This document shows positions 28,621 to 64,000 of a stretch of 64,000 bases of DNA, piece after piece (the first letter of the stretch is position 1; every line of letters starts with the position of its first letter). Source of the stretch: Eledone cirrhosa (taxonomy: Eukaryota); assembly GCA_964016885.1 (NCBI GenBank), contig OZ024743.1, positions 19,344,001 to 19,408,000 on the forward strand, written 5' to 3'. Position numbers and translations under genes: made by a program. The notes below the pieces were generated by a model. It did no database searches and was not told the DNA's origin. It was given only the letters and a program-made list of their open reading frames with translations.

Positions 28621-28661
28621 TAGATATATATATAGAGAGAGGGATAGATAGAAAGATAGAT

Positions 28662-28729
<68 letters not shown>
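28621..28729. repeat. (GATA)n tract, left end of Tx1 array
   Basis: Direct reading. Confidence 0.95.
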
Positions 28730-28731
<2 letters not shown>

Positions 28732-29000
28732 CTTTCTTTTTATTTGCCACCAGGGCATCAAAAGTGGGACAAGTACAAAGGGGGGAGTTTACATGCAAAG
28801 GCGTCCTCAATATGGAGGAGGCAATAACAAGATATAAAATTATAAAAATAAAATAAAATATAACAAAGTAAATTTTATAACAAAATCCTCAATAGGGAGG
28901 AGGCGCCCTGGTGGGTCGCACACACCACCGAAAAAAGTGTGCAACACTCTCCTCAGGAGCACAGAGAGGGGGTGCTCCCTTGATCTTTCATCTTCCTCAC

Positions 29001-32000
29001 CTATAGTCTGATGTAGAGTGAAGGCCCATTCACACGAGCCATTCTCGCCACTTTCACCCATCTTTCATAAAAACGGCTGGGGTGCAGCACCTCTCTCTCC
29101 ATCCTGATCCTTCTTCCGAAATGATATCGGAAGAAACGGACCAGTTGTTGGCCAGAGAGAAAGGTGTCTGACCTCAGTCCTTTCAGACGCGTCCACCATA
29201 CAACCTCTTTCGCCATGGCTATTACGCACAGAAACACCGCCTCTCCTTCGTTTTTGAAGAGGGGAGGCGGCTTGATCGTTACAATAGACTTGGTGGTCAA
29301 CCGGATCGGTCCCACCCTTGACAGCAGTTGTTCGACATAGCTCCACAGATCTGCAATGCCCGAGCAGTGTACCAATGCGTGTGCAACGATTTCCTCGACG
29401 CACACGCATCTGGGACAGATCTTTTTCGAGGGGTCCCTATCAGGGTGCCCGTGTCTGTAGAGTCTTTCTCGAACGGGCAGAGACCCTCGGTAGCACTGCC
29501 AGGCCAGGGACCTCTGGAAGTTATCCATGGGTCCCGGGCTGAATGTCCTACCGAACAGGTTGGCCAGTTCGTCTTCCTCCATGCCTAGGGCTTCTCCGAG
29601 GGCGTCGTCGCACCTGCTAACCACCAGCCCTCTATAGAATGACGAGGTGGATTCTCCACTGACAGCCGGGTCCGCCTGCCAGAGAGCCGTGAGAGCCTGG
29701 GTACACTCGGTGTGCCAGGCGCCGACTTTTCTCGGTCTTTGCTTGATCCAGGATTGCAGCTCGGTGAGTGAGACGAGTCTGGGAAAGGCTCGCCTCATAA
29801 AGGGGGCCCACACCGGTTGACCCGTGAGGAATACCTGGAGGTGCCGTAGCCTTAATACGTGTTTACGCATCATTAGCCACGGCATCCCCAGCCCTCCTTT
29901 CGAAGGGTGTTGACAGCAGATGGAACTCCTCACCATAGGAGCCCGCTTCTTCCAGAGGAATTGGAAGAGTTCGCGTTCCATTTTGGCGAGCGTTTCCCTT
30001 GGGCAAGGCACGACGGTCAGGCGGTAGTAGATGACGGACGCTATATAAGTGTTCGCCACCTCCGCCCGACCTTTCAGGGACAGTTTGCACTCGGCCCACT
30101 TCTGGGTCAGTGCAAACACCCTGTTCGTTACCTCACCCCAGGTCTTCTCCACCTGGAAGTCTGGTCTGAACAAGACCCCGAGCAACTTCACCGGGCCCTC
30201 CGTCCAGCGCCCGACGACGCCATCGGAGGGCATCGATCTGCCCCTCCACGTGCCGAGTTGCAAACCGATCGACTTGTCCCGGTTCAGCTTAGCCCCTGTA
30301 AACGTTTCGTACTCCCCCAGTAAGGTGCCGATCGCCCCGATTTCCGAGGCCGATGACACCATAACTGTTACGTCGTCGGCGTAGGCTGACACCGCTTTCC
30401 GCAATCCCCGTTCCAACGGGATGCCCTGCAACAACTCCAACTTCCGCAGCAGTGGATATAGAGTCATTACATACAGAAGGGAGGAGAGAGGGCACCCTTA
30501 TCGGATGGACCGCGCGATTTCGAACGGCTCCGAGAAGTAGCCGTTCACCTTGACCCGAGAGCAGCAGCGGCTGCTGTGCATGGCATTGATCCAGCCCCTG
30601 AAAACGGGTCCGAAGCCTGCTGCCGCTAGCACTGCATCCAGTTAACCATGGTCAACCCTATCGAACGCGTTAGATTGATCCAAGTTGATCAGGGCCCCAC
30701 CAAAGCCGGGTTCGTTCCCAACCCTCTCTATGATGTATCGCATGAGATGGAGGTTGTCGTGGATGGACCTGGACGGGATAGCACATGTCTGCGCATCTCC
30801 CACCAGGTTTCCCACGACAAGCGCCAACCTCTTTGCTAGCACCTTGGCCAAAATCTGTAACTCTGTATTTAGCAGGGTTATGGGCCTGAAATTATTTATA
30901 TCGTCCCCCTTGTTCTCGTCCTTCCTCACTAGCGTGACTACGCCCTTGGTCACAGCACAGGAAATTCTCCTGTTCTGTTGCCAGTTGCAGTGGACCGCCT
31001 CGAGGAGATCGGGGAACAAGTCCGGCATAGCTTGATACAGTTCGTATGGAAGACCATCGAGACCCGGGGATTTGTGTTTGCCGCATTGGCTTTGCACGTC
31101 CTCTATCTCAGCGGCTGAAATCGGCTCCTCGCAGGACTTCGCCTCCCTGTCCGAGAGACGCGGCAGGCCGTCATGGTATGGACCGAAGTTCACATCCCCA
31201 ACCGTCTCCCGCCCCTTCCGAACAATCCGGCAAAGTGCTTTTGAAAAGCCTCGCACATCTGCTTAGGTTCAAGGATCACCCGTCCATCCTGGTCTCACAA
31301 AGACCGGATAGTGGATATGCTCCCTCTTTTGGCTTCTGTCACGCGGGCCCAGCTAACAGCGTTTCCCAGAACACGTATTTTGCTTCGGACGATGCAGCCT
31401 TCGTGTTTCGCGTCGAAGAACTGGCCCAGGCCGTTCTCGACGCTAGCACTCTGGCCACGCCGCCGCTTCTAATTGCCTCTTACACTATCTACCTGCTCCC
31501 TTTTCTTCCTATTTCTATTTGAGGCTAACTCTTTACTAAATTCTATAGAGACTACTCTAATCTCTCTTTTGAGAGATCCCCACCACCTGTTGTTGACGAT
31601 GGCGCCCGTCAACCGCTCCTTAACTAAAGTGCTAATCCGGTTCCTGTAAGCCTTACTTGCCGGTAAGGACAAGTTGAGCTTCCAGTAACCGTGTCCCTGT
31701 CTATGCGTTCTGTCAAGGTTGACCATGCAGCTCACTAATTTGTGGTCTGAATAGCCAACCATGCTCATTTTTGGACAACTTAAAAAGTCCTTATCCTTAT
31801 TTCTAACTAAGAACCTATCTAGGTACGACCTAGATGATCCGCTACGATTTGCCCAAGTCCAGGTTGGCGCAGTCGGAAAATCTAGTCGAAATATATCGGC
31901 CAGGTAAAATCGACCGATTAACCCTTTGAGGCTATTATACCCCTGTCTATCGGGACAGGCCCCTACGTAGTCCCAGCGTGCATCTAGGATACCATTCCAG

Positions 32001-32421
32001 TCCCCCACTAATAGCAAGGAGCGGGACGTCCCTAGAAAAGTCTCCAGACGATGGAAGAAGTCCGGCCGCAGTGACCCGAAAGGGCCGTAGGCGGCTATCA
32101 ACCTAAACGTTCCGCCTTCACCACTGCCAATGTCCAGGACCACTAGTCGACCCTCCGGGTCCAAATGAACCGTCTGTGTTGCGAGACCTAGATGTGTTTG
32201 CAGCAGAACGACAACCCCACCCCACCTCCGGGCTGACACAGAGATGCGTGCATTTCAAAGTCATCAAAGGTGGGGGCCTGCTGTCGCACGTTGCTGATCC
32301 GGGCCTCGCAAATAACCATCACATCTATACGTTGTGACCTGAGGTCATTTAGAAGCATTGCTTGCTTCCAAGTTGAGCCCAGGCCACGCGCATTTAAATA
32401 GCCTACTCTTAGCATAGCCAT
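29001..32421 (-). pseudogene. Copy A ORF2 (APE endonuclease, RT, CCHC), frameshifted
   Basis: LVGDWNGILD, SYLDRF, YSDH, KSPGLDGLPYE, NFRPITLLN, AFDRVDH, AYADDV, CPRC..HALVHC. Confidence 0.93.
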
Positions 32422-32449
32422 GTTGGTGGTGAAGAGAAAAGGCACTTGC

Positions 32450-34250
32450 CTCTCTGCCGCCCGGGTATCGGGCTGCACAATTTCCATGAGGGTGGGGGAT
32501 GGGTTGTTGGGTGGGGTGGTGGTTTGTGGAAGTGTAGGGGCATCAGTGTGTTGTGTGGTTGGGGTGTTTGGAGTTGTGTGGGTGTTTGGGGAGGGGGTGG
32601 GATAGTCTTTTAGGAGGACGCGGTTAATGGGCCCGATGCTATGGGGGGGGGGGACACGTCCTCTTTAAAGTTGTCTTTTAGAGTTTTATAAGTGTCCTTT
32701 GGGGCCTTAATCATTTTGAGGTGGGGGAAATAACCTGCCTGGGTGAAGTTAGCCCTTGGGTTATTATTAATTTGTTGTTGTACACAATGTTTAACAGTTT
32801 TTTGTTTCTTGTGTTTATGTATGTGTATGCATGTTTTTGTTTTTGTATGGTGTTTTTTGTTTGCTGTTGTTGTGTGCTCTTTTGTGTTGGTGTCAGTGTT
32901 ATGTTTTGGGGAGTGGTTGTTTTCATTGGTGTGTTTTCTTTTTTTTCTTATTTTTCTTTTGATTGTGTGGAAGTGCTGCTCCTCGACTGACGACGAACGA
33001 GGGTCATCTTCCGCGTTGGAGAGGAGGGGTATATTTTCGGGTTGTGTTTGCGGTGCGGGTGTTTTGGGAATTGTTTTTTTTTTGAGTGGGGGGATGGGTT
33101 GGACATTGTTTTATTTTGGTTTGAGCTGTGGTTGTTGTTTTTATAGTGGTGGTTATGGTGGTTGTGTTGGTTGTGCAGTTGTTGGTGGTGTAGGCAGGAT
33201 TGGAGTTTTCTTATTAAGTTGGGGACAGAGAGCCCTCAGGTGACCTCTGGTTCCACAGAGGTAACACGAGGGCCGCCTACCCTCAACGGTAATGTTGATG
33301 AAAGTTTGATCATCCAGTATGACGCGTTCAGGGATCTGGGCGATCCTTTCGGGCCTCATTTGAACTACAAGTTCGAGGCTCGTTCCACTGAACGCATCAC
33401 TCGATGCCTTTCCCATGGACACCAGCGTGTCATCATCCAGTTTCAGGAAACCTGTCAAAACCCACCATATGTCTATAATCGGCAGGATGGTGTGGATATT
33501 TATTTGTTGTGGCCTTCTACCCATGGACGTAGGGTAGAAGGTGTATGCGGTGGATGTAATTGGATTGATGGACAGTTTCACTGCTGTGTCCCTGTCCTTC
33601 ATGAGAATGGATAGACTCCCGTAGTGTCTATCCTTCTGAATGAAGGTGATGTCCTTCATGACGTCTTTTAAAACCAGCTCTATCTCACTATGTGATGGTT
33701 GAGCTCGTTTTTTGCTTTTATTTGAAATTGTCCTAAACATGACAGTGTTTAGGAGTCTCTGGCTTTTTACTTCCGGAGGGGAGTGGATAGAAAATGCACC
33801 ATTTTCCCCGTACACTATATCTTTTTTGGTATCTGCCAGTAGCTCCTTCGCTTTGGTTATATCTACTGGCAGATAGTCGAGGGTTTTCCTTGCCGTCTGG
33901 GCGAAGGAGACCTTTTCCTTTTTTGTGTTGCTGTTGTAGTTGGTGGTGTTGTTGTTATCATTGTTGTTGTTATCAAAGTTATTGGACTTGAGGTTGTTGT
34001 TATTGTTATTGGTGTTGTTTTCGTCCGTAGCATTGTTGTTGTTGTTGCTGGTGCCGCTGGTTGTTTGGTTTGTTGTCATGGCAACGTCAAGTTGTCGGTC
34101 AGCAGGTGGAGAAAATCCTTCCTCTGGTTGACCTTTGTCTTTGGCCTCTGCTACTGTGAGTGTGGCAGGGGGAAGCTGTAAGCTTATCTTCCCCTTTCCT
34201 CCTTCGAATGTTGGTGAAGGAGCTTCAGCCGTTTTAAAAAATGTTAACAT
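32450..34250 (-). pseudogene. Copy A ORF1 (nucleic-acid-binding, CCHC knuckle)
   Basis: GRRPSCYLCGTRGHLRALCP; N/T-rich N-terminus; stop at 33153 and disrupted C-terminus. Confidence 0.85.
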
Positions 34251-34454
34251 TTCAACAAAAGAAAAACTTTTTGTTTAACTATTTCGCCTAAAGGCGTAGA
34301 ATATTTTGAGAGACTGACCAGATCAAAATTTGACCTGGCAGTCCTTCTACAAAATGGTACAAAAATTAAAGTTTACAAACAGGAATTTCTATAGAAATTT
34401 AAACAGAACTTACTCAGCAAGTTTCACGCGTGTATCCATCCCAGACATAGATAT

Positions 34455-35350
34455 GTTTCTTTTATTTGCCACCAGGGCATCAAAAGTGGGACAAGTACAA
34501 AGGGGGGAGTTTACACAAAAAGGCGTCCTCAATAAGGAGGAGGCAATAACAATGTATAAAAATAAAATAAAATATAACAAAAAATAAAATTTATAACAAA
34601 ATCCTCAATAGAGAGGAGGCGCCTTGGGGGGTCGCACACACCCCCGAAAAAAGTGTGCAACCCTTTTCCTCATGAGCACAGAGAGGGGGTGCTCCCTCGT
34701 TCCTTCCTCCTTTCCACCTACAGGCTTATGTAAAGAGAAGGCCCATTCACACGGGCCATTCTCGCCACTTTCACCCACCTTTCATAAAAACGACTGGGGT
34801 GGAGCACCTCTCTCTCCATCCTGATCCTTCTTCCGAAATGATATCGGAAGAAACGGACCAGTTGTTGGCCAGAGAGAAAGGTGCCTGACCTCAGTCCTTT
34901 CAGACGCGTCCACCATACAACTTCTTTCACCATGGCTATTACGCACAGAAACACCGCCTCTCCTTCATCTATGAAGGGTGGAGGCGGCTTGATCATTACG
35001 ATAGACTCGGTGGTCAACCGGATCGGTCCCACCCTTGACAGCAGTTGTTCGACATAGCCCCACAGATCGGCTACGCCCGAGCAGTGTACCAATGCGTGTG
35101 CAACGGTTTCCTCGTCGCACACGCATCTGGGACAGATCTTTTTGGCGGGGTCCCTACCCGGGCGCCTGTGTCTGTAGAGTTTTTCTCGGACGGGTAGAGC
35201 CCCTCGGTAGCACTGCCAGGTCAGGGACTTCTGGAAGTTGTCCATAGGTCCCGGGCTGAATGTCCTACCGAACAGGCTGGCCAGTTCGTCCTCCTCCATG
35301 TCTAGGGCTTCTCCGAGGGCGTCGTCGCACCTGCTGCGTACCAGCCCTCA
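34455..35350 (-). mobile_element. Tx1 copy B, 5'-truncated (ORF2 C-terminus + 3'UTR)
   Basis: ORF 34718-35299 matches the copy A C-terminus; truncation point abuts (GATA)n. Confidence 0.93.
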
Positions 35351-35377
35351 GAGATAGATAGATAGTTATATAGATAC

Positions 35378-35426
<49 letters not shown>
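35351..35426. repeat. (GATA)n spacer
   Basis: Direct reading. Confidence 0.95.
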
Positions 35427-35427
<1 letters not shown>

Positions 35428-35660
35428 TTCTTTATTAGCCACAAGGGTGCAACGAGAAAGGGGACAATACAAAGACATGCCGGGGATTTTACATACAGTC
35501 GTGTAAAAAATATAAAAACAAACAATTTCAACAATCGAAATCCCCAATAGGGGGGAGGCACCACAAATGGGTTGTTTAATACCCCGTCGATAGAACAACC
35601 CTCAACTCGAGGAGCGTGTTGTGCAAGTGCTCCTTTCTTCCTTTTGCTCTCTTCCTCAAC

Positions 35661-38600
35661 CTACAGGCTTATAAACAGAGAAGGCCCAATCACTCGGGCC
35701 ATTTTCGCTTCATTCACCCACCTTTCAGTAAATTTACTGGGGTGCAGTGCCTCTCTCTCCACCCTGATTCTCCTTCTAAAGTGATACTTAAAGAAGGGAA
35801 TCAATTGTTGTCCGGAGAGAAAGGCATCTGTCCTCAGTCCTCTCAACCTCGTCCACCATATAACTTCTTTCACCATAGCCACCGTACAGAGGAAAACTGC
35901 CTCTATTTCGTTTTTAAAAGAGTCTGGCGGTTTGATCCTTACTATGGACTCGGCAGTCAACTGTATTTGTCCCATACGCGACAGCAGTTGTTCTGCATAG
36001 TTCCACAGTTCGCTTACGCCCGGGCAGTGTACAATTGCGTGCAGAACTGTTTCAATGTCCTGCGGACATCTTGGACACGTCCTCTTGGAAGGATCCCTGC
36101 CAGGGCGTCCGTGCCTGTAGATCTTGTCACGAACCGGTAGAGTTCCTCGGTAGCACTGCCAGGCCAGGGACCTCTGGAAGTTGTCCATAGGTCCCGGGTG
36201 GAAAGTCCTACCAAACAGACTGGTGAGCTCATCGTCTTCGACGCCCAGAGTCTCTCCGAGCACGTCGTCGCCCTTGTAACGTACAACCCCTCTATAGAAT
36301 GTCGAAGTGGAGTCTCCACTGATTGCTGCGCCCGCCTGACAGAGGACTGTGAGCGCCTGAGCGCATTCAATGTGCCAGGCCCCCATCGTTTTCGGTCTTT
36401 TCTTCACCCAGGAGTGCAGCTCCGTTAGCGAGAGGAGCTGTGGGAAAGCCTGTCTCACAAACAGTGCCCACACCGGTTGGGGGTCGGTGAGGAATACCTG
36501 GAGCTGCCGCAGCCTCAGCGCATGTTTGCGCATCATCAGCCACGGCATTCCCAGCCCTCCGTTGGAAGGGTGCTGACAGCAGACGGATCTCCTCACCAGC
36601 GGAGCCTGCTTCTTCCACAGAAACTGGAAGAGCATGCGTTCCATCTTGGCGAGATGTTCACGGGGGCAAGGCGCGACAGTCAAGCAGTAGTAAATGACGG
36701 ACGCTATGAAAGTGTTCGCCACCTCCGCTCGACCTTTCAAGGACAGTTTGCAATCTGCCCACTTCTGAGTGAGTGCAAACACCTTGGCCGTGACCTCGTT
36801 CCAGTTTTTCTCCACCTCGAGGTCTGGACCGAACAAGACCCCGAGCAATTTCACCGGTCCTTCCGTCCAGCGTCCAACGACGCTGTCGGATGTCATCGGT
36901 TTGCCTCTCCACGTACCGAGTTGCAAACCGACAGACTTGTCTGGGTTTAGTTTGCTCCCGTCAGCGTTTCGTATTCTTTCAGTATGTTGCCGATCACCCC
37001 GATTTCCGAGGTGCTCGACACCATTACCGCAACGTCGTCGGCATAAGCCGACGCCGCTTTGCGCAGTCCCGGTTCTAGGGGGATGCCCTGCAACAGCTCC
37101 AATTTCCGCAGTAGTGGCTCTAGAGTCAATACATACAGAATGGAGGAGAGAGGGCGTCCCTGTCGAATGGAACGCGTGATTGCGAACGGCTCCGATAGGT
37201 AGCCGTTCACCTTGACCCTCGAGCAGATGCTGGTGTGCATCGCCTCGATCCATCCTCTGAACACGGGACCGAAACCGGCCGCCTTGAGAACCGCTTCCAA
37301 GTATCGATGGTCGACCCTATCGAATGCCTTAGACTGATCCAAGTTGATCAGAGCCCCACCGAAGCCGGGTTTACTACCCACCCTCTCTATGATGTATCGC
37401 TTGAGGTGGAGGTTGTCGTGTATGGACCTGGTCGGGATTGCACACGTTTGCGCTTTCCCTACCAGGTTCTCGACGACAAGCGCCAACCTCGTCGCTAGCA
37501 CCTTGGCCAAAATCTTTAACTCTGTGTTGAGCAGAGTTATGGGCGTGAAGTTGTTAATTTCGTCCCCCTTGTTCTCGTCTTTCCTGATCAGCGTTACTAC
37601 GCCCTTGCCTGCAGAACTGGGAATTCTCCCGTTCTGCTGCCAATTGCAGTAGACGGCTTCGAGGACGCCAGAGAACAAGTCCGGCATGCCTATGTAAAAT
37701 TCGTAGGGTAGACCATCTAGACCGGGTGACTTGCGTTTCCCGCAGCGGCCCAGAGCGTCCCGTATCTCAGTGTCCGTGATCGTTCTTTCCCAGAACTCGG
37801 CGTCGGTGTTCGAGAGACGCGGCAGGCCGTCGAGGTATGAACTAAAGTCCATTGCCCCGTTCGGCTCACCGTCGTTCTGCTCAAACAGTCGCGCAAAGTG
37901 CCGCTGAAAGGCCGCGCACATTTGCTTGGGGTCAAGTAGCACGCGTCCGTTTTGGTCTTTCAAAGACCGAATCGTGGACTTGTTGCCACTTTTTGCCTCC
38001 GCCACTCGGGCCCAGCTGACAGATTTCGCTCCTTCGTTTCATAGAGCACGTGTTTTGCTTCTGACCACGCAGCCTTCGTGTTTCGCATCGAAGAACTGGT
38101 CAAGTGCCGTTCTCGACGCTAACACTCTAGCTGCGTTGCCACCTCTAAGTGCCTCCTCTACCTTGGCTACTAGTTCTCTTTCTATTCTGTTTTTCTCTAA
38201 GGCTAACTCTCTGCTATACCATATCGATTCTATTCTAATTGCTTTCTTGAGAGAGTACCACCATCTATTGTTGACGATGGCTCCCGTTAACTGTTGCTTG
38301 ACTAGTCTACTTATCCGTTCACTGTAAGCTTTACGTGCCGGCAACGACACGTTCAGCTTCCAGTATCCGGGACCATGTCTATGTATTCTATCACGGTTGA
38401 CTAAGCAGACGACTAAGTTATGATCTGAATAGGCAACCATGTACATTCGTGGACAGCTTAACATCTCCTTGTCCCTTTCTCTAATGAAGAACCTATCTAA
38501 ATACGATCTAGATGTCCCACTGCGGTTTACCCACGTCCACTGTGGTGCAGTCGGGAAATCCAGTCGATACCTATCGGCCAGTTGGAATTGGCCGATTAAA

Positions 38601-39106
38601 GTTTTGAGGCTGTTGCACCCCGCTCTACTGGGACATGCTCCCACATAGTCCCATCGTGCATCTAGGATACCATTCCAGTCCCCCACTAAAAGTAAGGAGC
38701 GAGACGTTCCCAGAAAAGACTCTAGACGCTTAAAGAAGTCTGGCCGTGATTGCGATTGCCCGGTCGGGGCATAAACGGCCACCAGTCTGAAGGCTCCACC
38801 TCCAATACTGTTCACGTCTAGGACTACCAGTCTACCCTCCGGGTCCAAGTGTACTTGCTGTACTCCGACGTCCAGGTTCTTCCGAAACATAACAGCCACT
38901 CCACCTCCACCTCCTGGCTGACAGAGAGATGCGTAAATCTGAAAGTCGTCGAAGATGGGGGTTAGTTGCTGCCTGTTGTGGATTCTGGACTCGGTGATGG
39001 CTATCACATCCATACTGTGTGACCTAAGGTCGTTTAAAAGTTGGCCCTGTTTCCAGGGCATCCCTAGGCCACGCACATTCACGGTTCCAACTCGTAAACC
39101 AGCCAT
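35661..39106 (-). pseudogene. Copy C ORF2 (APE-RT-CCHC), stop and frameshift
   Basis: ORF pieces 38039-39106, 36947-38005, 35661-37253 carry the APE, YADD and CCHC motifs. Confidence 0.93.
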
Positions 39107-39149
39107 GTTGGTGAAGAAATGTTGGAGAAAAAGGACGAAAGGTGCACTT

Positions 39150-41030
39150 ACCTTTTCGTTTCCTGGAGATCGGGTTGTTCAATCTCCATTTGGGTGCTGG
39201 ATGGGTGTTGGGTGGGGTGGGGAAACATTTCAACAGGACGCGGTTGATGGCTTTGTGGCAGGGGTTGCCCACGTCCTGTGAAAATTTAATTTTTAAGTCT
39301 TTATAGGTTTCCATAGAAACCCTTATAAGTTTAAGGTGTGGAGACGATTCTGCCTTGACGAAAGTTTTGCCCTCCGTCTCCACCTTGGGGTTTTGGGAGA
39401 TGACCTCCATCAAACTCTTGTTGTTTGTGTTGATGTATGCGTATTGTTGTTTGTGTTTTTGTTGTGTTGTTTTAGTTTGTTGTTCATCCGGGAGTTTTCT
39501 TTTTATGGTGGGTGCTTGTGTTTGGGGTGGTGTTGGTGCTGGTTTTGCTGATAGGGGGATGTTTGACTGTGGTGTTGTTTGTGTCTGTGGTTGTGTGTTG
39601 GTGTTGGTGATTGGAGTTTTGGGGGTTTTGTGGTGTCTCTTTTTTTGTTTTTAGATTTCCGCGGTTCTCCCTCTTTTTCACTTAAAGAAGGAGAAGCAGC
39701 TTCATCCGTCGATGAATAATCATCGTCAGGTGTGTGGGGTAAGGGTATGTTGTGTGGTGGTGGTGGTGTTTCGGTATGTGTGTTTGTGGTAGTGTTTGAT
39801 GGAGTGGGATGGAGTGGGGATGTGTTCTTCAGGGGTGTTTTTTCTGTTGTTGTTGGTTGAGTGTCTGTTTGTTTTGGTGTGGTTGCTCGTTTCGTCTGTC
39901 GTTGTACTTGTGGTGGTGGTGGTGGTTGTTTTGGTGTTGGTGTTGGTAATAGCGTTTTTTTTATGATGTTGTTGTTGTGTGTTTGTGGACAAGAGGCTTT
40001 TAGCTGAGATGTGCTACCACAGCGAAAGCAATGAAATTTTCGTCATTCTACCGAAATGTTTATTTTGTTGTTATTATCAATAACGACTCTTTCGGGTATT
40101 TAGGAGATTCTCTCCGGTTTCGTTTGCAACAGAATCTCAAAATCGGTGCCCGCCCACCTTTGTAGAATAGATTTTCGTATCGAAAGTATTATGTATGTTT
40201 CTGGCTCTACGAAGCCAGCCAAGATCCACCAGATGTTAATGCTTGGGGGTATGTTTTTTATTTTTATTTTTTGTGTCCTTTTCCCCATGTATGTAGGGAA
40301 AAAGGTGTATGCTTTTGACACTATTGGTGTCACAGAGTTTTTTGGGGCGAGTGCCTCACTTTTAAACAGTACGGAAACACTTCCGTACTGTTTTCCTCGC
40401 TGGAGAAAATCGACATTTCCTATAATCTCCTTGAAAGAATCTTCTATATCTGCTTGATTAACAAATGTCGGTGTTCTTGACGAATTTGACACAGTCCTAA
40501 AGGTGACTGATCGGCGGTTTGTGTCTTCCTTTATTTCAAGGGGTGAGTTAATTCTAAACCCACCTCTTTCTTCGAAAGTTACAAATGTTCTCCCTTGCTG
40601 GAGCATATCTCTTGCGTTGGAGATATCAAGATTTATAAAATCTTGTTTCTTGTTCACTGTGTCAGCGAAAGACATTTTCTTTTTTTGTGTGGTGGTGTTG
40701 TTGATAATGATGTTATCGTTGTTTGAAATTTTATGTGTAGATGTATCTGTAGAGTTGTTGATGTCTTTTTCATGTGTATGTATGTCAATGGGTTTTTTTG
40801 CTGTGTTTTCCTGTGTGTTATTGTCATTTTTCTCCGCTTCGGCGGTAGAAATCGTAAAATTTTCAAATGTTGATATAATTTTTTTCTTTTATGACAGTTG
40901 TATCTATGGCAACGTCCATAGCAGCAGAAGCAGATATAACGTTAATATATGCCTCTTTCTCTCTCTTTTCTCTATTAATGTTCTCCAGCGTTCTAGTGTT
41001 GCTCAAGTTTTTTACTTTGTAAAATCTGAT
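39150..41030 (-). pseudogene. Copy C ORF1, disrupted
   Basis: SFAD..FFPTYMGKRTQKIKI core and KAINRVLLK C-terminal block; start uncertain. Confidence 0.8.
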
Positions 41031-41214: not shown

Positions 41215-41216
41215 AC

Positions 41217-52858: not shown

Positions 52859-52916
52859 AGATAGATAGATAGATAGATAGATAGATGGAGAGATAGATAG
52901 ATATATATATAGATAT
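52859..52916. repeat. (GATA)n spacer
   Basis: Direct reading. Confidence 0.93.
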
Positions 52917-53155
52917 GTTTCTTTATTAGCCCCAGGGGCAGAAAAGAAGGGGACAAATACAAAGGGGGAAGTTTACATACAATAAAAACGTGTAAAATGT
53001 TATCACAAATGGAATTTAAAAAGTTAGTCGATTTTCCCAAATAGAGGGAGACAGTTTATATGGGTAACACATACCCCCGAAAAAAATGTGCAACCCTCAT
53101 CTCCAGGAGTACGAAGAGTTTGTACTCCTTTCCTCTCCTCCTCCTTTTCCTCAAC

Positions 53156-56100
53156 CTACAGGCTGATATAGAGAGAAGGCCCATTCACTTGGGCCATTCT
53201 CGCCACTTTCACCCACCTTTTATAAAACTTGCTGGGGTACAGCACCTCTCTCTCCATCCTGATTCTTCTTCCAAAGTGGTATTTTAAAACAAGAATCAGT
53301 TGTTGGCCGGACATAAAGGTGTCTGACCTCAGCCCTTTCAACCTTGTCCACCATACAACCTCTTTCGCCATAGCTATCACACAAAGGAAAACCGCTTCTC
53401 CATCGTTTTTGAAGGAGGGTGGCGGTTTGATCATGACAATGGATTCGGTGGTCAACTGTATTGGTCCCACCCGCGACAATAGTCGTTCTACATAGCCCCA
53501 CAGGTCATTGAACCCCGGGCAGTGTATGTATGCGTGTACGACGCTTTCTTCGTCTCGCACGCACCTCGGACAGATCTTTTTTGCAGGGTCCCTGCCCGGG
53601 CGCACATGTCTGTAGAGCTTGTCTCGAACTGGTAGAGCTCCTCGGTAGCACTGCCAGGCCAGGGACTTTTGGAAGTTGTCCATCGGTCCCGGGCGGAAGG
53701 TCCTATCGAACAGACTGGCCAGTTCATCTTCCTCTACTTCTAGAGTTTCACCGAGCGCGTCGTTGCACTTGCTGCGGATAAACCCTCTATAGAATGACGA
53801 AGTGGAGTCTCCACTGATCGCCGGGTCCGGCTGCCAGAGAGCTGTGAGCGCCTGAGCACATTCGATGTGCCAGTCGCCCATTTTCCTCGGTCTTTGCTTG
53901 ACCCAGGACTGCAGCTCGGTCAGCGAGACGAGTCGTGAGAATTCTCGCCTCACGAACGGCGCCCACACCGGTTGTCCGGTGAGGAATACGTAGAGATGCC
54001 ACAGCCTGAGCGGGTGTTTGCGCATCGTCAACCACGGCATCCCCAGCCCTCCGTTAGAAGGGTGTTGGCAGCAGATGGATCTTCTCACCAAAGGAGCCCG
54101 CCTCTTCCAAAGGAATCAGAAGTGCGCGCGTTCCATTTTGGCGAGCGTTTTGGCTGGACAAGGCACGACGGTCAAGCGATTTGCGAGGCGCTCGACACCA
54201 TTACTGTCACGTCGTCGGCGTAGGCCGACGCCGCTTTCCGCAGTCCCGGTTCCAGAGGGATGCCTTGCAATAGCTCCAACTTCCGCAGTGGTGGCTCGAG
54301 AATCAGTACGTACAGAAGGGAGGAGAGAGGGCATCCCTGTCGAATGGATCGCGTAATATGGAACAGCTCCGAGAGGTAGCCGTTCACCTTGACCCTTGAG
54401 CAGATGTTGCTGTTGTGCATTGCAGCAATCCAGCCCCTGAACACGGGTCCGAAGCCTGCCGCCTCGAGCACCGCATCCAGGTAACGATGGTCAACCCTAT
54501 CGAAAGCCTTAGACTGATCCAAGTTGATCAGGGCCCCACCGAAGCCGGGTTTACACCCTACTCTCTCTATGATGTATCGCATGAGGTGGAGGTTGTCGTG
54601 TATGGACCTGGTCGGGATTGCGCATGTCTGCGCTTCTCCCACCAGGTTCTCGACGACAAGCGCCAGCCTCTTTGCCAACACCTTGGCCAAAATCTCTAAC
54701 TCCGTGTTTAGCAGAGTTTTTTGGCCGGAAGTTGCCTTTGTCATCCCCCTTATTCTCGTCCTTCCTGATTAGTGTGACCACGCCCCCGGTTACAGAACTG
54801 GGAATTCTCCCGTTCTGTTGCCAGTTGCAGTAGACCGCTTCCAGGAGACCGGAGAATAAGTCCGGCATTGCTACGTAAAATTCGTAGGGTAGACCGTCGA
54901 GACCTGGAGATTTGCGTTTGCCGCATTGGCTCAGCGCGTCCCCTATCTCAGCGTCTGAAATCGGCTTTTCGCAGAAATCGCCTCGCTCTCCGAGACTCGC
55001 GGTAGGCCGTCGAGGTATGAACCGAAATCCATAGCCTCTCCCGGCGCGCCGCCCCTCTCGAACAGTTGAGCAAAGTGCCGCTGAAAAGCCGCACACATCT
55101 GCTTCGGCTCACGTTTCACGCGTCCGTTTTGGTCCTTCAAAGACCGAATCGTGGACTTGTTGCAACTTTTTGCCTCCGTCACTCGGGCCCAGCTAACAGC
55201 TTTGGCTCCCTCGTTTCCTAGAGCACGTATTTTGCTCTGACAACAAAGCCCTCGTGCTTTGCGTCGAAGAACTGGTCCAAGGCCGTTCTCGTTGCTAGCA
55301 CGCTGGCTACGTTGCCACTTCTAATTGCCTCTTCTACTTTATCTACCAGTTCCTTCTCGGTTCTATTTCTATCTAACGCTAATTCTTTACTAAAAACTAT
55401 CGAGTCTAATCTAACTGCCCTCTTGAGAGAGTACCACCATCGGTTATGACAATGGCCCCTGTCAAGTGCTGTTTAACTAAAGTGCTAATCCGTCTACTGT
55501 AGGCTGTGCTTGTCGGTAACGACAAGTTCAGCTTCCAGTAGCCGGGTCCTTGTCTATGGGTTCTATCAAGGTTGGCCATACAGGTCACTAGTTTGTGATC
55601 TCAATAGGCAACCATGAATATTTGTGGACAGCTTAACATGTCCCTATCCTTATTTCTAACTAGAAACCTATCTAGGTACGATCTAGATGTTCCGCTACGA
55701 TTACTCCACGTCCACAGTGGCGCAGTCGGAAAATCTAGTCGATATCTATCGGCCATGTCAAATCGGTCGATTAACTGTTTGAGGCTGTTACACCCCCCTT
55801 TATCTGGACATTCTCCCACATAGTCCCAACGTGCATCTAGGATTCCATTCCAGTACCCCATTAAAAGCAAGGAGCGGGACGTTCCCAGAAAAGTCTCTCG
55901 ACGTTTGTAGAAGTCCCGGATGGGGCATATGCGGCCACCAGCCTGAAGGCTCCACCTTCACTACCGTCAACGTCTAGGACCACCAGTCGACCCTCCGGGT
56001 CCAGATGTACCGTCTGTGTTACGAGGCCCAGGTGTTTCCGCAGTGAAACGGCAACTCCGCCCTCACCCCCCGGTTGACAGAGAGATGCGTAGATCTCAAA

Positions 56101-56262
56101 GTCATCGAAGATGGGGGCCAGCTGTCGCTCGCTGTGGATCCTGGACTGGCAAATGGCTACCACATCCATACTGTGCGACCCGAGGTTGTTTAAGAGTTTG
56201 CCCTGTTTCCATGGCATCCCCAGGCCGCGTACGTTCACACATCCAACTCTTATATTGGCCAT
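53156..56262 (-). pseudogene. Copy F ORF2, disrupted
   Basis: APE, RQGCPLS, AYADDV and CPRC..HAYIHC in fragments. Confidence 0.92.
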
Positions 56263-56295
56263 GTTGGTGCTGAAAAGTTAAAAGAGGAAAAGAGA

Positions 56296-58206
56296 TCACT
56301 CACCCTTCGTCTCCTGGGGACCAGTCCGCACGATTTCCATGGGGGTGTTGGAGGGGTTGTCTGGATGGGAGGTGGTTTCTGGCGGGGTGGGGACGGAGAT
56401 GTTTGGTGGGGTGGGGTCTGGTGGGATGGGGGTGTCTGGGGTGGGGAGACATTTGAGAAGGACGCGGTTGAGTGGTTTCACGCAGGAATTCCCCACATCC
56501 TTCTCAAATGTTTCTTTTAGGGACCTATAAGTTTGTATAGGGACCCTAATCAGTTTTAGGTTCATTCTTTTGCTATTTTTAATAGAGTGGGCGAAAGTTT
56601 TCCCTTCGGTTTTCACCGAAGGGTCGTTCGTGATGGTCTCCATTAGTGTTTTGTTTTCAGTGTTTATGTAAGTGTAAGTGTAATTTTCTTGTGTTGTGTT
56701 TGTTTTTGTCTGCAGTTCTTGTGTGCGCTTTCGTTTTGTTGTAGGTATTTTGTTTTCAGGAGGTGGGGGGTTTTGTTTGTGATGTTATTATAGTTTGTGT
56801 CGGTGGTTGTATGTTTGTGGTAGTGTTTGCTGGTTTTTTGCATTTGTGATGTCTTTTCTTTCTTTTCGAGCGATGAGGTTCTCCCTCGTCTTCACTGGGT
56901 GATGGCGAGATAGCCTCATCTGTTGTATCGTCTGTGTGATTGGGGAGGGGTATGTCTTGGGGAGCTGTTGTGTCTGTATGTGATTTTGCAGTGCTTTTAG
57001 GTGGAGTGGGGTTGGGTGGGACTGTGTTTGTTGTGGTTATTTTTGTGTGCTGGTGTTGTTGTTGTGGTGGTGTTGGTGGTTGTGTTGTTTTGATGGGTGT
57101 CGGCAGAAGAGCCTTTTTTTATCATTAATTTAGGACAGGAAGCCCTCAGGTGACCCCTGCTAAAGCAATGGTAACATGAAGGCCGCCTACCCTCAACCAA
57201 AAAGTTTATGTAGGTGAGTCCGCCCAGGAGTACACGTTGTGGGATCATAGCTATTCGCTCTGGGCTCATTTGCACCAGAACTTCAATGCTAGTCCCATTG
57301 AATACATCTCTGGGGGACTTTCCTATTGACAGTATTCTGTCTTCATCAAAATTGATCAAGCCGCACATTATCCACCATATGTTCACCTTTGGTGTGACAC
57401 TCGTGATTCTGATCTTTTGTGTCCTTTTTCCCATGTATGTAGGGAAAAAGGTGTACAGGTTGGATACAATTGGCGACACAGAGTAATTTTTGGCCGTCAA
57501 TTGATCCTTCATGAGTACCGAAATACTCCCAAAAAGTTTGCTTCTTTGAATGAATGCAATATCATTCATTGAATTTTTGAAAACCTCAATTTCTTTCTGT
57601 GACAATTGGACTGGTTTTCTGGTAGAATTGGAAACTGTCCTAGAAACTATCGTTTTGAGAGCAGTTTCCTTGCAAATTTCTACCGGAGAATTGATGCTGA
57701 AAGCACCATTTTTTTCGAAAGTGACATATCTCCTAGCGTCCTTTAAAAGTTGTTCAGCATTTGTTATGTCGAGATATATCAATTCCTCCTTTTTTTTTAA
57801 CTTTCTCTGCAAATGAGATTTTTGGTTTCTTTGTGGAATCCGTGTTGTTGGTGTTGTCATTATTGTTGTTATTGTTGTTGTTATTCTTGTTGTCACCGAT
57901 GTTGGTATTATTCGTATTTTCCTTGGTGTTGTTGTTGTCTTTGATGCTGCTGTTATTGGTGTTGTCTTTATTTTTTTCTTTGTTGTTGTTATCATTGTTG
58001 CTTTTATCATCATTATTGGTGTTGCGGTTATTTTTGTTGTCATTGAATTTTTTGGTGTCATTTGTGTTGTTTGGATATGAATTCGTTTTTACATTTTTAT
58101 TTCATCTTTCCATCTCTATAGTATCTAGTGGAGAAGACGTTGTTGACTGCGAGCATTGTAGTCTTATCGCCTCTCCACCACCATTATCGTTGGACGCAGC
58201 GTTCAT
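56296..58206 (-). pseudogene. Copy F ORF1, disrupted
   Basis: GRRPSCYHCFSRGHLRASCP; KPLNRVLLK. Confidence 0.85.
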
Positions 58207-58425
58207 AACGTAATCAAACTTTTACAATATTTTTTGCAAGATTCGATGGAGAAATTTTTTTTTTCAAATGGATATTCCGCCCCCGTAGGGGCGAAATTGA
58301 TTTGACCACCACCTGAAGGTCCAGCCGGGGGGTCAAGTTACACAATGATATAAAATTTAACTAAAGAATCACATTTTTTTCTTACATAAATTAACGGAAA
58401 CTTCTCCGCGAAGTTACACACGTCT

Positions 58426-58436
58426 GATAAAGAGAG

Positions 58437-58528
<92 letters not shown>
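58426..58528. repeat. (GATA)n spacer
   Basis: Direct reading. Confidence 0.95.
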
Positions 58529-58530
<2 letters not shown>

Positions 58531-58756
58531 GTTTCTATTTATTTGCAACGAGGGCACAAAAGAAGGGAACAAATACAAGGGGGCGGAGTTTACATAAAGG
58601 AAAGAGTAAAAAATAAATAACAAATATAAAATTAACAATACAGTTCTCAATAGGGAGGAGGCGTTTTGGGGGTTACACGCACCCCCGTAAAAGTGTGCAA
58701 CCCTTTTCCTTAGGAGCACAGAGAGGGCGTGCTCCTTTGCACTTCCACCTTTCCAC

Positions 58757-61700
58757 TTACAGGCTGATAAAGAGAAAAGGTCCATTCACACGGGCCATTC
58801 TCGCTCCTTTCACCCACCTTTCATAAAACTTGCTGGGGTAGAGCACTTCTTCCTCCATTCTGATCCTTCTCTTAAAATGGTATTTAAAGAAAAGGACCAG
58901 TTGTTGGCCGGGGAGAAAGTGTCCGACCTCAGCCCTGTCAAACGTGTCCACCATGTAACCTCTTTCACCATGGCTATTACACAGAGGAAGACCGCCTCTC
59001 CTTCATTTTTGGAGGGGGGAGGCGGCTTGATCGTTACAATGGAGTCAGTGGTCAACCGAATTGGTCCCACCCGTGACAGCAGTCGTTCTTCATAGCCCCA
59101 CAGATCGGCAACGCCCGAGCAGTGTACCAATGTGTGCGCAACGGTTTCCTCGTCGCGCACGCATCTGGGACAGATTTTTTCGAGGAGTCCCTACCCGGGC
59201 GCCCGTGTCTGTAGAGCTTTTCTCGAGGTGCCGTAGTGTTAATGCGTGTTTACGCATCAGCAGCCACGGCATCCACGGCCCTCCTTTCGAAGGTTGTTGA
59301 CAGCAGATGGATCTCCTCAACAAAGGAGCCCGCTTCTTCCAAAGGAATTGGAAGAGTGCGCGCTTCATGTTGGTGAGCGTTTCCCTTGGGCAAGGCATGA
59401 CGGTCAAGCGGTAATAGATGATGGACGCTCGATCTCTCAGGGATAGTTTGCATTCCGCCCACTTCCGTGTCAGCGGAAAAACCCTGTTCGATACCTCACC
59501 CCAGTTCTTATCCACTTCGAGGTCTGGCCCTAACCAGACCCGAGCAACTTCACCGGGTCCTCCGTCCAACGTCCGACTACGCCATTGGAGGCCATCCGTT
59601 CGACCTCCACTCGCCGAGTGGCAAGCCGATTGACTTGTCCCGGTTCAGTTTAGCCCCTGTAAACGTTTCGTATTCCTCCAGTAAGGTGCTGATCACTCCG
59701 ATTTCCGAGGCGGTTAATAGCATTACTGTCACGTCATCGGCGTAGGCCGACACCGCTTTCCGCAATCCCGGTTCCAAAGGGATGCCCTGTAACAACTCCA
59801 ACTTCCGTAGCAGTGGCTCTAGGGCCAATACATACAGAAGGGAGGAGAGAGGGCATCCCTGTCGGATGGACCGCGTGATTTCGAACGGCTCCGAGAAGTA
59901 GCCGTTCACCTTGACCCTAGAGCAGATGCGGCTGATGTGCATGGCAGTGATCCAGCCTCTGAAAACGGATCCGAAACCTACGCAACTAGCACCGCATCCA
60001 GGTAACGATGGTCGATCCTATCGAACGCCTTGGATTGATTCAAGTTGATCAGGGCCCCACCAAAGCCGGGTTCGTTCCCAACACTCACTATGATGTATCG
60101 CATGAGATGGAGGTTGTCGTGAATGGACCTGGACGGGATGGCGCATATCTGCGCATCTCCCACCAGGTTGCCCACGACAAGCGCCAACCTCTTTGCTAAC
60201 CCATTGGCCAAAATCTTTAACTCTGCATTTAGCAATGTTATGGGCCCAAAATTACTTATTTCATCCCCCTTGTTCTCGTCCTTCCTCACTAGCAAGACTA
60301 TGCCCTTGGTCACAGAACAGGGAATTCTTCCGTTCTGTTGCCAGTTGTAGTAGACCACTTCGAGGAGATCGGAGAACAAGTCCGGCATACTTAAATACAG
60401 TTCGTATGGAAGACCATCGAGGCCCGGAGATTTACGTCTGCCGCATTGGCTCAGCACGTCCCCTATTTCAGCAGCTGAGATAGGCCTCTCGTAGGACTTC
60501 GCCTCCTCGTCCGAAAGACGCGCCAGGCCGTCGAGGTATGGACAGTGGTCCACATCCCCATCTGGCCCCTCGTCGCTTCCGAACAATAGGTCAAAGTGCC
60601 TTTGAAAGGCCTCGCACATCTGCTTAGGCTCAAGGATCACCCGTCCATCCTGTTCTCGCAAATACCGGATAGTGGATCTAATCCCACTTTTGGTTTCTGT
60701 CACGCGGGCCCAGCTAACAGCTTTGATCCCCTCGTTTCCCAGAGCACGTATTTTGCTTCGGACAACGCAGCCTTCGTGTTTTGCGTCGAAGAACTGGCCT
60801 AAGGCCGTTCTCGACGCTAACACTCTGGCTACGTCGCCGCTTCTAATTGCCTCTTCTACACTATCTACCAACTCCCTTTCCTTCCTATTTCTATCTGAAG
60901 CAAACTCCTTACTAACTCCTATTGAAGCTACTCGAATCTCTCTTTTGAGAGAGCCCCACCACCTGCTGTTGATGATGGCGCCCGTTAACCGCTCCTTAAC
61001 TAATGTACTAATCCGGTTCCTGTAAGCTTTACCTGCCGGTAAGGAGAAGTTGAGCTTCCAGTAACCGGGTCCCTGTCTATGCGTTCTATTAAGGTTGACC
61101 ATGGAGGTCACTAACTTGTGGTCTGAATAGCCAACCATGAGCATTTTTGGACAACTTAAAAAGTCCCTATTCTTATTATAACTAAGAACCTATCTAGGTA
61201 CGATCTAGATTGACCGCTATGGTTTCTCCAAGTCCAGGTTGGCACAGTCGGAAAATCTAGTCGAAATCTATCGGCCAGGTCGAATCGGCCGATTAACCCC
61301 TTGAGGCTGTCACAACCCCCTCTATCAGAACATGCCCCTACATAGTCCCAACGTGCATCTAGGATACCATTCCAGTCCCCACTAAAAGCAAGGAGCAAGG
61401 AGCAAGGAGCGGGACGTCCATAGAAAAGTCTCCAGACGATGGAAGAAGTCCAGCCGCGTTGACCCAAAAGGGCCGTAGACGGCGACCAGCCTAAAAGCTC
61501 CGCCTTCACCACTGCCAAGGTCCAGAACCACTAGTCGACCCTCCGTTCCAAGTGTACCGTCTGTGTACCGATGTTTTTGCAGCAGAACTACAACCCACCC
61601 CCACCTCCGGGCAGACACAGAGATGCGTGCATCTCAAAGTCATCAAAGGTGGGGGCTAGCTGTCGCTGCTGATCCGGGCCTCGCAAATAACCATCACATT

Positions 61701-61796
61701 TATACATCGTGACCTGAGGTCATTTAGAAGCATTGCTTGCTTCCAAGGTGAGCCCAGGCCACGCGCATTTAGACAACCTATTCTCAACACAGCCAT
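58757..61796 (-). pseudogene. Copy G ORF2, disrupted
   Basis: GDWNGILD, YSDH, KSPGLDGLPYE, RQGCPLS, AYADDV. Confidence 0.92.
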
Positions 61797-61824
61797 GTTG
61801 GTGGTAAAGAGAAAAGGTACTTAC

Positions 61825-63610
61825 CTCTCTGCGTCCCGCACAATTTACATGGGAGTGGGGGATGGTTGTTGGGTGGGGTGGTGGTTTGTGGAAGTGTAGG
61901 GGCATCAGTGTGTGTTGGGGTTGGGGTGTTTGGAGCTTTGTGGGTGTCTCGGAGGAGGACATTTTTTTAGGAGGACAGGGTTAATGGGTCTAACGCAGGG
62001 GGGCCCCACGTCCTCTTTAAAAGTGTATTTTAACATTTTGTAAATGTCCATTGGAGCTTTTATCATTTTTAGATTGCTTGTGTGAAATTCGAACCTTCGG
62101 TTTTTATTAAGTTGTTATTATAAATAACGTTTAACAGTTTTTTTGTTTATTGTATTTATGTAAGTATATGCATATTTTTCTTTTTATGATGTTTTTTGTG
62201 TTGATGTCTGTGTTATATCTTGGGGAAGGGTTGTCTGACGACGAAAGGGGTCGTCTTCCGTATTCGAGGGGAGGGGTTCATTTTTGGCTCGTGTTTGTGG
62301 TGTGGGTGATATTGTATTTGTTTTCTGTGTGGGCGGGATGGGTGAGATTGTTTTCAGTTGTGTTTTAACTTGTGGTGTTAGTTGTTTTTGTGGTGATGGT
62401 GGTGGTGGATGTTGTGTTGGTAGTGTTGTAGTTGTTGATGTGGGCAAAATCGGTGTTTTTTTGTTTGCTTAGGAACAGGCAACCCTCAGGTGACCTCTGC
62501 CACCACAGAGGTAACAACGGGTCGTCTACCCTCCACTGTGAGGTGTAAGTAGGCAAGCCCATCCAGCAATATGCGGTCGGGTATCCTAGCAATTCGTTCT
62601 GGCTGCATTTGCACCAGAACTTGCAGGCTAGTTCCACCGAACACGTTGCTGAAAGACTTACCTACCGAAATTACTGCATCCTCTTTCAAGTCGAGGAGGC
62701 CACACAGTACCGCCCAGAAATCAATATCTGGATCGATTATGTGTATGGTCAATCTTTGTGTTTTTCTTCCCAAATAAGTGGGGAAGAAGGTAAATAAGGG
62801 GGACACAATTGGGGCCAGGGAATGTTTTTCGGTCGTCAATTTATCTTTCATTTGGATGGATAGACTACCGTAGAGTCTATCCTTCCGAATGAATACGTTT
62901 TTCAGATGATCTTTTAAAGCCAGTTCAATCTATGTCTGTGTGAGTTGTACTGGCTTTCGGGTTTTGTTTGATATTGTCCTATAAATAATAGTTTTTAAGC
63001 TATTTTCCTTTTTTAGCTTTGGGGGAGAATTTAAAGAAAATAGACCATTCTCCTCCAAAGTTATATACTTCCGTGCATTTTCCATTTGCTGGGCCATGTT
63101 GGAAATGTCAATAGGTTCATACACAATGGGTTTTTTTTATGGTTTGAGCGAACGTCATTTTGTTCGCCACCTCTATGTTTATATTTGTCGAAATGAGGTT
63201 GTTTTCTTTTTTTTTTGTTGTTACAATTATCATTTTTTGTTGTGTTTGTGTTATTTATGTTGGTGTATGCGTTCACATTATTTTTCCGTTGGGGTTAGAC
63301 TCCATTTCTTCAAAAAGTTCACTTATATTTTCAGTATCCGAGAGACTTGTAGTCACTGCTACTACCTCTCTTTCACCTTTGCTGGTGGGTGTGGCACCGT
63401 GAAAAGTCGAAACGGCATCCATTAATGTTGGCAATTTCTCCGAGTCAATTTTTTTCACATATTTTTCATTAAGGTTAGGCTCCATTTTTTCTAAGTTTCT
63501 AATAATCATTTTTCTTTCAGTGGAGAGGGTTGTTGCCTCCGCTACCCGCTCTCTTTCGGTTTGTTTAGTGGGCGTCTCATCGGTACCTGTGGTAATGGCT
63601 TCCATTACCA
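61825..63610 (-). pseudogene. Copy G ORF1, disrupted
   Basis: FFPTYLGRKTQRL, TVEGRRP followed by a frameshifted knuckle; start uncertain. Confidence 0.8.
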
Positions 63611-63846
63611 CTAGCGTAGAGACAATCACAATATTTTTAGGATCAAAAATGTCACCCCAAAAGGGGTGAAATAAATTAACCCTAATGTCCGAAGACCCAG
63701 GCAAGGGGGTTAATTAACACAATAACGCAAGAATACAGGCACACACTTACTGTTAACCTGTAATATATCCAATAATCGACGAGCCGATGTGAAACACGTC
63801 TATACCATCCGGAGATAGATAGACAGATATACAGATAGATAGATAT

Positions 63847-64000
63847 ATTTATTTATTAGCCACAAGGGCGCACAAGAAAAGGGGACCATACAAAGACATG
63901 CTGGGGATTTTACATACAGTCGTGTAAAAAATATAAAAACAAACAATTACAACAATCGAAATCCCCAATAGGGGGAGGCGCCACAAATTTGTTGTTTAAT
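63847..64000 (-). mobile_element. 3'UTR of the next Tx1 copy (array continues past the window)
   Basis: Closely matches the copy C 3'UTR (35427-35580). Confidence 0.9.

Follow-up and report, generated by a model that had tools for sequence, protein, structure and literature searches.

We analysed a window of 64,000 nucleotides from the octopod Eledone cirrhosa (contig OZ024743.1 of assembly GCA_964016885.1, positions 19,344,001 to 19,408,000), which contains an array of long interspersed nuclear elements (LINEs) set in GATA microsatellite sequence. Upstream of 28.6 kb the window consists of AT-rich host DNA with many TA tracts, and beyond this point it is GC-richer with (GATA)n runs. Self-comparison and sequence inspection showed that ten minus-strand copies with apurinic/apyrimidinic endonuclease (APE) and reverse transcriptase (RT) domains occupy positions 28,731–64,000, separated by spacers of 12–166 nt that are all GATA-type, as a first-pass annotation of the sequence had described. 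Seven of the copies keep both ends and three (B, E, and E2) are 5'-truncated and directly adjoin a GATA tract, again as described; copy I runs past the window end. No (TATC)3 was found on the plus strand in the whole window, and the longest TA run in the window part of the array is (TA)5, so the reported absence of long (TA)n tracts holds. All 1,531 BLAST pieces of dispersed copies located on 28,501–64,000 share one strand. With the library used, from which the subfamilies of F and H were absent, the gaps of at least 40 bp left uncovered fell in the left flank, in GATA tracts, or in the ORF1/5' regions of F and H.

The array does not stop at the window end; its last tract, (GATA)25, lies at extended coordinate 80,573 (C4:19,424,573). 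As a whole it spans about 52 kb and comprises 12 copies (with I, J, and K), has no N inside, and is bordered by host DNA and a GATA tract on both sides. It lies 19.4 Mb inside a 378.8-Mb contig of the 3.0-Gb genome, far from the contig end. At the I/J junction (about 69,300, outside the window) the tract has been lost by deletion. Some subfamilies recur along the array (A/B/K, C/I, and E/G/J). Contigs from four sequencing runs span most of copy D, and no RNA dataset was present among the sequencing runs listed as containing copy D sequence. Coordinates are given in Table 1.

Table 1. Features of the LINE array in window coordinates
Feature	Position	Strand	Evidence or closest relative
Left end of split host microsatellite, (TA)5(GA)3..(GATA)16+	28602..28730	.	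Tandem Repeats Finder period 4, 32 copies; sequence
Copy A, full length, broken open reading frames (ORFs), subfamily A	28731..34442	-	Closest dispersed relative 95.2% vs 91.6% in array
12-nt GATA-type spacer, head of A + tail of B	34443..34454	.	
Copy B, 5'-truncated, 0.9 kb	34455..35349	-	
GATA tract, 19 units	35350..35427	.	
Copy C, full length, broken, subfamily C	35428..41212	-	97.9% to dispersed copy vs 88.5% in array
GATA tract, 42 units; final 22 nt (41357-41378) are left copy of D target-site duplication	41213..41378	.	
Copy D, full length, youngest subfamily; ORF1 open (603 aa), ORF2 broken	41379..47239	-	98.7% to dispersed copy vs 81.3% in array
Degenerate GATA tract; 47241-47262 are right copy of D 22-nt duplication	47241..47315	.	
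Copy E, 5'-truncated, 0.37 kb, subfamily G	47316..47689	-	
Copy E2, 5'-truncated, 0.5 kb; GATA spacers of 17 nt and ~31 nt either side	47707..~48223	-	95% to dispersed copy
Copy F, both ends present, internal deletions	48255..52857	-	
GATA tract, 14.5 units	52858..52915	.	
Copy G, both ends present, ~300-bp deletion at 54,177	52916..58426	-	96.4% to dispersed copy vs 94.5% in array
GA-rich head of G + (GATA)23	58427..58529	.	
Copy H, both ends present, ~360-bp deletion at 59,222	58530..63810	-	95% to dispersed copy over 351 bp
Degenerate GATA tract	63813..63848	.	
Copy I 3' end, subfamily C	63849..64000 (continues beyond)	-	

Pfam searches revealed APE and RT domains in the array copies. No intact ORF2 was found among them, the longest stop-free pieces being 551 aa in the window and 654 aa in copy K. 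Elsewhere in the genome, members of subfamily D retain an intact 643-aa ORF1 and 1,156-aa ORF2 in at least L136, L140, L144, L145, and L147. The intact ORF2 comprises an N-terminal APE domain (PF03372, E=6e-8) followed by RT (PF00078, E=6e-27), its APE catalytic positions align with those of human L1 ORF2, and the protein matched human L1 ORF2 with E=4e-51 versus E=1e-20 for R2. A C-terminal zinc-binding region matched zf-RVT (PF13966, E=8e-6) with 26.9 bits, slightly below the cut-off of 27.5. ORF1 has one CCHC knuckle with a weak Pfam match (E=0.29), and Pfam gave no match to Transposase_22 in it; its atlas neighbours at 0.90–0.92 carry zf-CCHC, and one has RRM_1 in 10% of members. Animal ORF1s of the RRM/CCHC type, not Transposase_22, are consistent with Tx1 (PMC5203782). 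The predicted domains place the elements in the L1 group, and membership in the Tx1 clade appears likely. Among the 120 homologues listed there were no Tx1-named entries, and the sole named animal homologue was a protein of Argonauta hians, matching at 67% over 40% of the query. In a midpoint-rooted RT tree of 38 rows, which contained neither copy F nor named reference families, the 16 GATA rows formed one side of a 100/98 branch. Ten full-length copies of subfamily D share a mean identity of 98.8%, which together with the intact ORFs makes recent activity of the lineage likely. The even genome samples described below, with 8 copies in 600 kb, give an estimate of roughly 40,000 copies of the GATA-seeking lineage in the genome (95% range 17,000–79,000).

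The junctions of dispersed copies were tabulated for the 30 best matches to each 3' end of subfamilies A, C, G, and D, out of 577–2,395 candidates each; 60 of the sampled loci were extended, and the 120 loci yielded 110 copies with both junctions (70 truncated and 40 full-length). Excluded were four self matches, L013 and L029 (not extended), L026 (a mosaic), L104 and L107 (which run into related pieces), and L093 (a duplicate of L092). One 3'-end query carried 7 nt of tract, which biases only the 3' flanks of the set obtained with it. At least three exact GATA units were found at the 5' junction of 45/70 truncated and 37/40 full-length copies, and at least two units in 51/70 and 39/40, respectively. 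GATA of the opposite polarity was seen at this junction in 0/110 copies at three or more units and in 1/110 at two or more, and when genome samples spaced evenly and totalling 600 kb were tested in this way, the background was 0.108% and 0.377%, respectively. Of 29 subfamily-A 5' ends collected separately, 21 had at least three units and 25 at least two. The even samples themselves contained eight copies found without best-match selection, of which six had a GATA-type 5' flank (by eye), one was next to a single GATA and had a short duplication, and one was without GATA; five of the eight sit in two small arrays. TA tracts outnumber GATA tracts about twentyfold (281 vs 14 in 200 kb), yet they seldom form the 5' flank. 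The value for truncated copies with at least three units, 64% in this best-match sample, exceeds the level of >20% of flanks of one type used in PMC4494074 to define a target-specific family. GATA is a target of these elements and not merely their tail. The first-pass annotation had come to the same view from the truncated copies of the window, and its opposite, a predominance of non-GATA 5' flanks in the genome, was not what the best-match tabulation gave. As for the (TATC)n-specific lineage it had envisaged, the single lineage stands, being the one recovered in the RT tree, and the strict specificity does not. Lone AGATA/ATAG is also accepted: eight truncated copies (L020, L072, L075, L081, L086, L092, L109, and L142) occupy non-microsatellite sites, with a clean duplication ending in ATA or ATAG.

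A strict caller of target-site duplications, which required exact, locus-specific, and non-periodic content and allowed an added tail of up to 6 nt, identified duplications in 22/110 copies against a mean of 1.0 (range 0–4) in 20 shuffles; a loose caller yielding 55 "informative" cases was dropped as too permissive. The duplications are 9–45 nt long (median 18), and the three longest of them extend into repeats. Degenerate variants of the tract were found to be duplicated exactly at insertion. In the array, copy D is flanked by a 22-nt duplication (at 41357 and 47241), and this 22-mer is unique to the locus among the 1.94 Mb examined. Pairwise identity of the array copies is 70–97%, and adjacent pairs are 72–91% identical. 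For copies A, C, D, E, G, I, and J, a dispersed copy is more similar than any other array member; for H and E2, 3'-end searches located such relatives outside the array (95%), and K is 97.5–98.0% identical to even-sample copies versus 96.5% in the array. For these 10 of the 12 copies, therefore, the array is the result of repeated separate insertion, the conclusion that had first been drawn from the divergence of the copies. The other two are F and B, the best match of the latter in the sample being array copy K (96.5%).

A relative on the same strand was present within 480 bp of 57/110 dispersed copies and a relative on the opposite strand in 2/110, a few loci being mutual neighbours. The tail added beyond the fixed 3' end was 0–3 nt in 22/22 copies with strict duplications, and one further case, of 7 nt, appeared when long periodic tails were allowed. 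Copies of the youngest subfamily, D, have an older relative on the 3' side in 11/29 cases and on the 5' side in 11/29. Many spacers are no longer than 30 nt, about one duplication length, and at L138 the duplication takes in the last bases of the truncation point of an older copy. Within the array, the 5' flank of copy B begins with the AGAGATAG step characteristic of subfamily-A heads, so that B was likely inserted at the head of copy A. The short added tails, the use of both sides, and the spacers of one duplication argue that arrays grow by splitting and duplicating the target rather than by new tails; a GATA tract is likely split and partly duplicated, and both remnants remain usable. The even samples contain about 25 GATA tracts and 8 copies per 600 kb. 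At this density, a rough model of random tract use predicts about 27% of copies with a neighbour and essentially no 12-copy array, and an equally rough splitting model, in which one site is gained per insertion, predicts 43–52% with a neighbour and 0.005–0.07 arrays of at least 12, a number that rises where the quality of tracts is uneven.

We consider it highly probable that a host GATA microsatellite received about 12 separate insertions, all on one strand, from subfamilies of a single GATA-preferring LINE lineage of the L1 group, likely of the Tx1 clade, and that the array grows from inside by splitting and duplicating its target. In established target-primed reverse transcription, the endonuclease nicks the target, the freed 3' end primes synthesis on the 3' end of the RNA, and a staggered second nick leads to the duplication. 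The sampled copies bear its hallmarks, 70/110 being 5'-truncated and 22/110 having strict duplications, with AATAAA within about 10 nt of the fixed 3' end. The process is outlined in PMC13295347. In the lineage described here, the APE domain would nick the GATA-bearing strand at or just past AGATA/ATAG, and the freed 3' end (..AGATA-3') could pair with a short UAUC stretch behind the poly(A) signal of the RNA, priming reverse transcription and fixing the orientation of the insertion. A second nick some 9–24 nt off would duplicate part of the tract. Each insertion would leave target on both sides and thus add one site to the locus, and occupied loci would therefore gather further copies in a Yule-type process, with growth from inside.

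Several points weigh against this interpretation. It rests on sequence data. The junction table is a best-match sample in which some loci are mutual neighbours, and the flanks of E2, F, and H are outside it. Two exact GATA units at the 5' junction were missing in 19/70 truncated copies; besides the eight at non-microsatellite sites, two more lie in TA/GA mixes, and nine show, by eye, neither a GATA tract nor a duplication and may have lost a flank. Pure (TA)n occurs at the 3' junction of several copies (L011, L013, L103, and L113). Full-length copies of subfamilies A, C, and G bear subfamily-specific GA-rich heads (15/29 heads of A begin with AGAGATAG, and 4/5 of C and 9/13 of G have their own head), and D has no fixed head. 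Full-length 5' flanks are therefore partly element-borne, which makes truncated copies the cleaner test of the target. Locus-specific duplications were not obtained for 88/110 copies, which is expected in pure repeats and is not proof. At its fitted mean the splitting model expects only about 0.07 arrays of at least 12, so that extra tract-to-tract variation or selection is needed. Finally, the adjacent full-length subfamily-D copies L144/L145 (L209/L210, G000:C1 ~348.91–348.93 Mb) show 100.000% identity across 5,817 bp, their 18-nt spacers are the same, and their ORFs are open; recent tandem duplication, a concatemer, or assembly duplication does occur in pairs of this type in some other arrays. 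A third subfamily-D 5' end adjoins this pair.

A sister family in the same genome, with members beside the array, seeks a different microsatellite and serves as a natural control. It has (AAT)4 at 22/29 3' ends and AAT at 5/8 truncated 5' ends, with GATA at none, and the GATA families have AAT at 0/110 5' ends. The APE domains of the two groups share 57–60% identity, with few differences in the hairpin region. The differences include LCQ in GATA families versus SRP in AAT families ahead of the glycine run and one hairpin residue before SYLDR; they are leads only. The APE domain of subfamily D (L202) has GDWND after the catalytic aspartate, where the other subfamilies have GDWNG. In one minisatellite family, a GATA-family copy resides at a TTAGATA variant and an AAT-family copy at TTAAATA (L072/L253), a one-base difference with one case each. 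Three same-strand sister LINEs (L064–L066; extended coordinates 94,853–100,724, ~105,000–108,640, and 110,500–116,475), about 70% identical to the GATA families, have (AAT)n flanks and are interleaved with another LINE type whose tail, on the opposite side, is AAT-type as well. A further relative (L070; extended coordinates 156,000–161,700) has an (ATT)4(AGT)n 3' flank and branches beside the GATA clade in the RT tree.

A variant of the proposed mechanism, not separated from it by the data, is that the site is chosen mainly by RNA-DNA pairing at priming, through the UAUC tail and the GA-rich head, on nicks made by an endonuclease of loose specificity instead of one specific to GATA. We regard this variant as a real possibility, if a somewhat doubtful one. 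A lone AGATA/ATAG was enough in eight copies, full-length A, C, and G copies have subfamily-specific target-like heads, and the hairpin regions of the GATA-family and AAT-family endonucleases are nearly alike. However, subfamily D shows equal GATA preference without a fixed head, most insertions lie in real tracts even though a lone AGATA is a much more frequent site, and the APE differences between the target classes fall at a few conserved places. Target choice is moreover assigned to the endonucleases of such elements in PMC8869645 and PMC4494074.

The first-pass annotation had proposed that each copy brings its own long (TATC)n 3' tail, which becomes the landing site of the next one, so that the array is extended in one direction. 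Long pure GATA does occur at 3' junctions, with at least three units in 34/70 truncated and 36/40 full-length copies, the 3' end of a relative lies on the 5' side of 32/110 copies, and L154 is inserted into the short tail of an older copy; long tails inside pure repeats would also be invisible. This part of the proposal nevertheless fits poorly with the added tails of 0–3 nt and with the equal use of both flanks by subfamily D. Besides, 3' tracts are no longer than 5' tracts, the medians being 17 vs 20.5 (p=0.36) and 31.5 vs 40 (p=0.008, in the opposite direction), and the youngest copies, D and C, are mid-array, with no age gradient along it. Seeding by tails is thus improbable.

An origin of the array from a few ancestral units by tandem or segmental duplication, or an assembly artefact, would account for the recurring subfamilies and for the match of B to K, and exact tandems exist elsewhere (L144/L145 and L092/L093). 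In this array the low identity of adjacent copies, the non-repeating order of subfamilies, copy D's own target-site duplication, and the absence of N make such an origin very unlikely, and tandem duplication was rejected for the 10 of 12 copies with closer outside relatives. For most of its copies the array thus did not resolve into duplications of a few units, an outcome that the first-pass annotation had allowed for. An explanation without active targeting seems just as remote: copies landing across the genome would be retained or accumulate where the DNA is neutral and rich in GATA, or tracts would expand later from short seeds. AGATA seeds duplicated at insertion could indeed expand by slippage, and selection may add to clustering. 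Against this stand the strict strand polarity, the rarity of the far commoner TA tracts as 5' flanks, the long 5' tracts already present in young subfamily D, the exact duplication of degenerate tract variants, and the sorting of the AAT sister family to another repeat. A telomere-type polar array with tails added at the chromosome end, as in HeT-A/TART, would share the uniform polarity and the abutting of truncated copies on the next tail, and has a negligible chance here: HeT-A/TART arrays occupy chromosome ends and have no target-site duplication, whereas this array is interstitial (19.4 Mb in), duplications are present, and the youngest copies are mid-array, which rules out end addition.

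Some further features were noted at the locus and elsewhere. At the 5' junction of L165 (copy L014), a short segment of the element's 5' end is repeated in inverted orientation between the head and the GATA tract. Copy F combines a subfamily-A-like 5' end (74%) with an E2-like 3' end (window 34,301–34,443 and 52,718–52,857), which suggests an exchange of parts between subfamilies; L026 is a mosaic too. Copy J holds a 217-bp insert (extended coordinates 73,424–73,640), an internally deleted fragment of a dispersed repeat associated with TA, and this repeat had 6 matches in the 600 kb of genome samples. Outside the array, at window positions 2644–4011 on the plus strand, there is a broken Penelope-like element with RT (PF00078) and GIY-YIG (PF01541) pieces. 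No tRNA genes were found in the window.

The habit of targeting microsatellites is already known, and what is gained here is a new target, with no earlier report found, and a test system rather than a new kind of element. Waldo, Mino, Dong, and Togen belong to other clades (R1, R4, NeSL-related). They likewise target microsatellites, of other units (ACAY, AC, TAA, and TG, respectively; PMC3812793, PMC4640811). Kibi and Koshi, which insert into (TC)n and (TTC)n, are members of the Tx1 clade from teleosts (Kojima and Fujiwara 2004, as cited in PMC4494074 and PMC3812793). Like them, the elements described here are APE-type elements without long terminal repeats (non-LTR) that enter a microsatellite with a pyrimidine-rich strand; they differ in their target, the unit being TATC or, with relaxed specificity, a lone TATCT/CTAT-type site, and in their octopod host. 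The crocodilian Tx1-1_Crp group also shows a tetranucleotide preference, (TTCC)n/(TTTC)n, across several families of one genome, but the unit is different and no long arrays are described in the text sections of PMC4494074. A parallel in growth is SINEU-3/Tx1-Mar (PMC4494074), where copies insert sequentially beside earlier ones via a duplicated target and truncated copies prove independence; there, however, the copies enter a Mariner transposon and form short tandems, as opposed to 12 LINEs over 52 kb. In Octopus vulgaris, 13 recently active L1-Tx1 families with 421 insertions were reported, likewise young Tx1-class LINEs, and the word "target" is absent from the main text (PMC13282606). No TATC/GATA-targeting Tx1 or other non-LTR element was found in open-access PMC and bioRxiv literature, although Repbase or the list in Fig. 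3 of PMC4494074 could hold one, and a TATC target is not named in the accessible portions of PMC8869645, PMC4640811, and PMC9004415.

More tentatively, and with considerable doubt, the two lineages may represent a still-active LINE radiation in which sisters switched microsatellite target (GATA vs AAT) within one genome, reading sites as short as five bases partly via target-like sequence at both RNA ends, and in which multiplication of the target builds interstitial polar arrays of 50 kb. If so, intact natural copies would directly test the roles of the endonuclease and of RNA pairing in the choice of microsatellite. How APE-type elements target microsatellites is poorly understood (PMC3812793), and the GATA lineage, with intact young copies beside an AAT sister, offers a ready pair for swap experiments. 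Growth from inside also explains same-strand LINE arrays of tens of kilobases away from telomeres. In such animals, GATA microsatellite markers would often be flanked by repeated LINEs, as were 6/26 of the tracts sampled.

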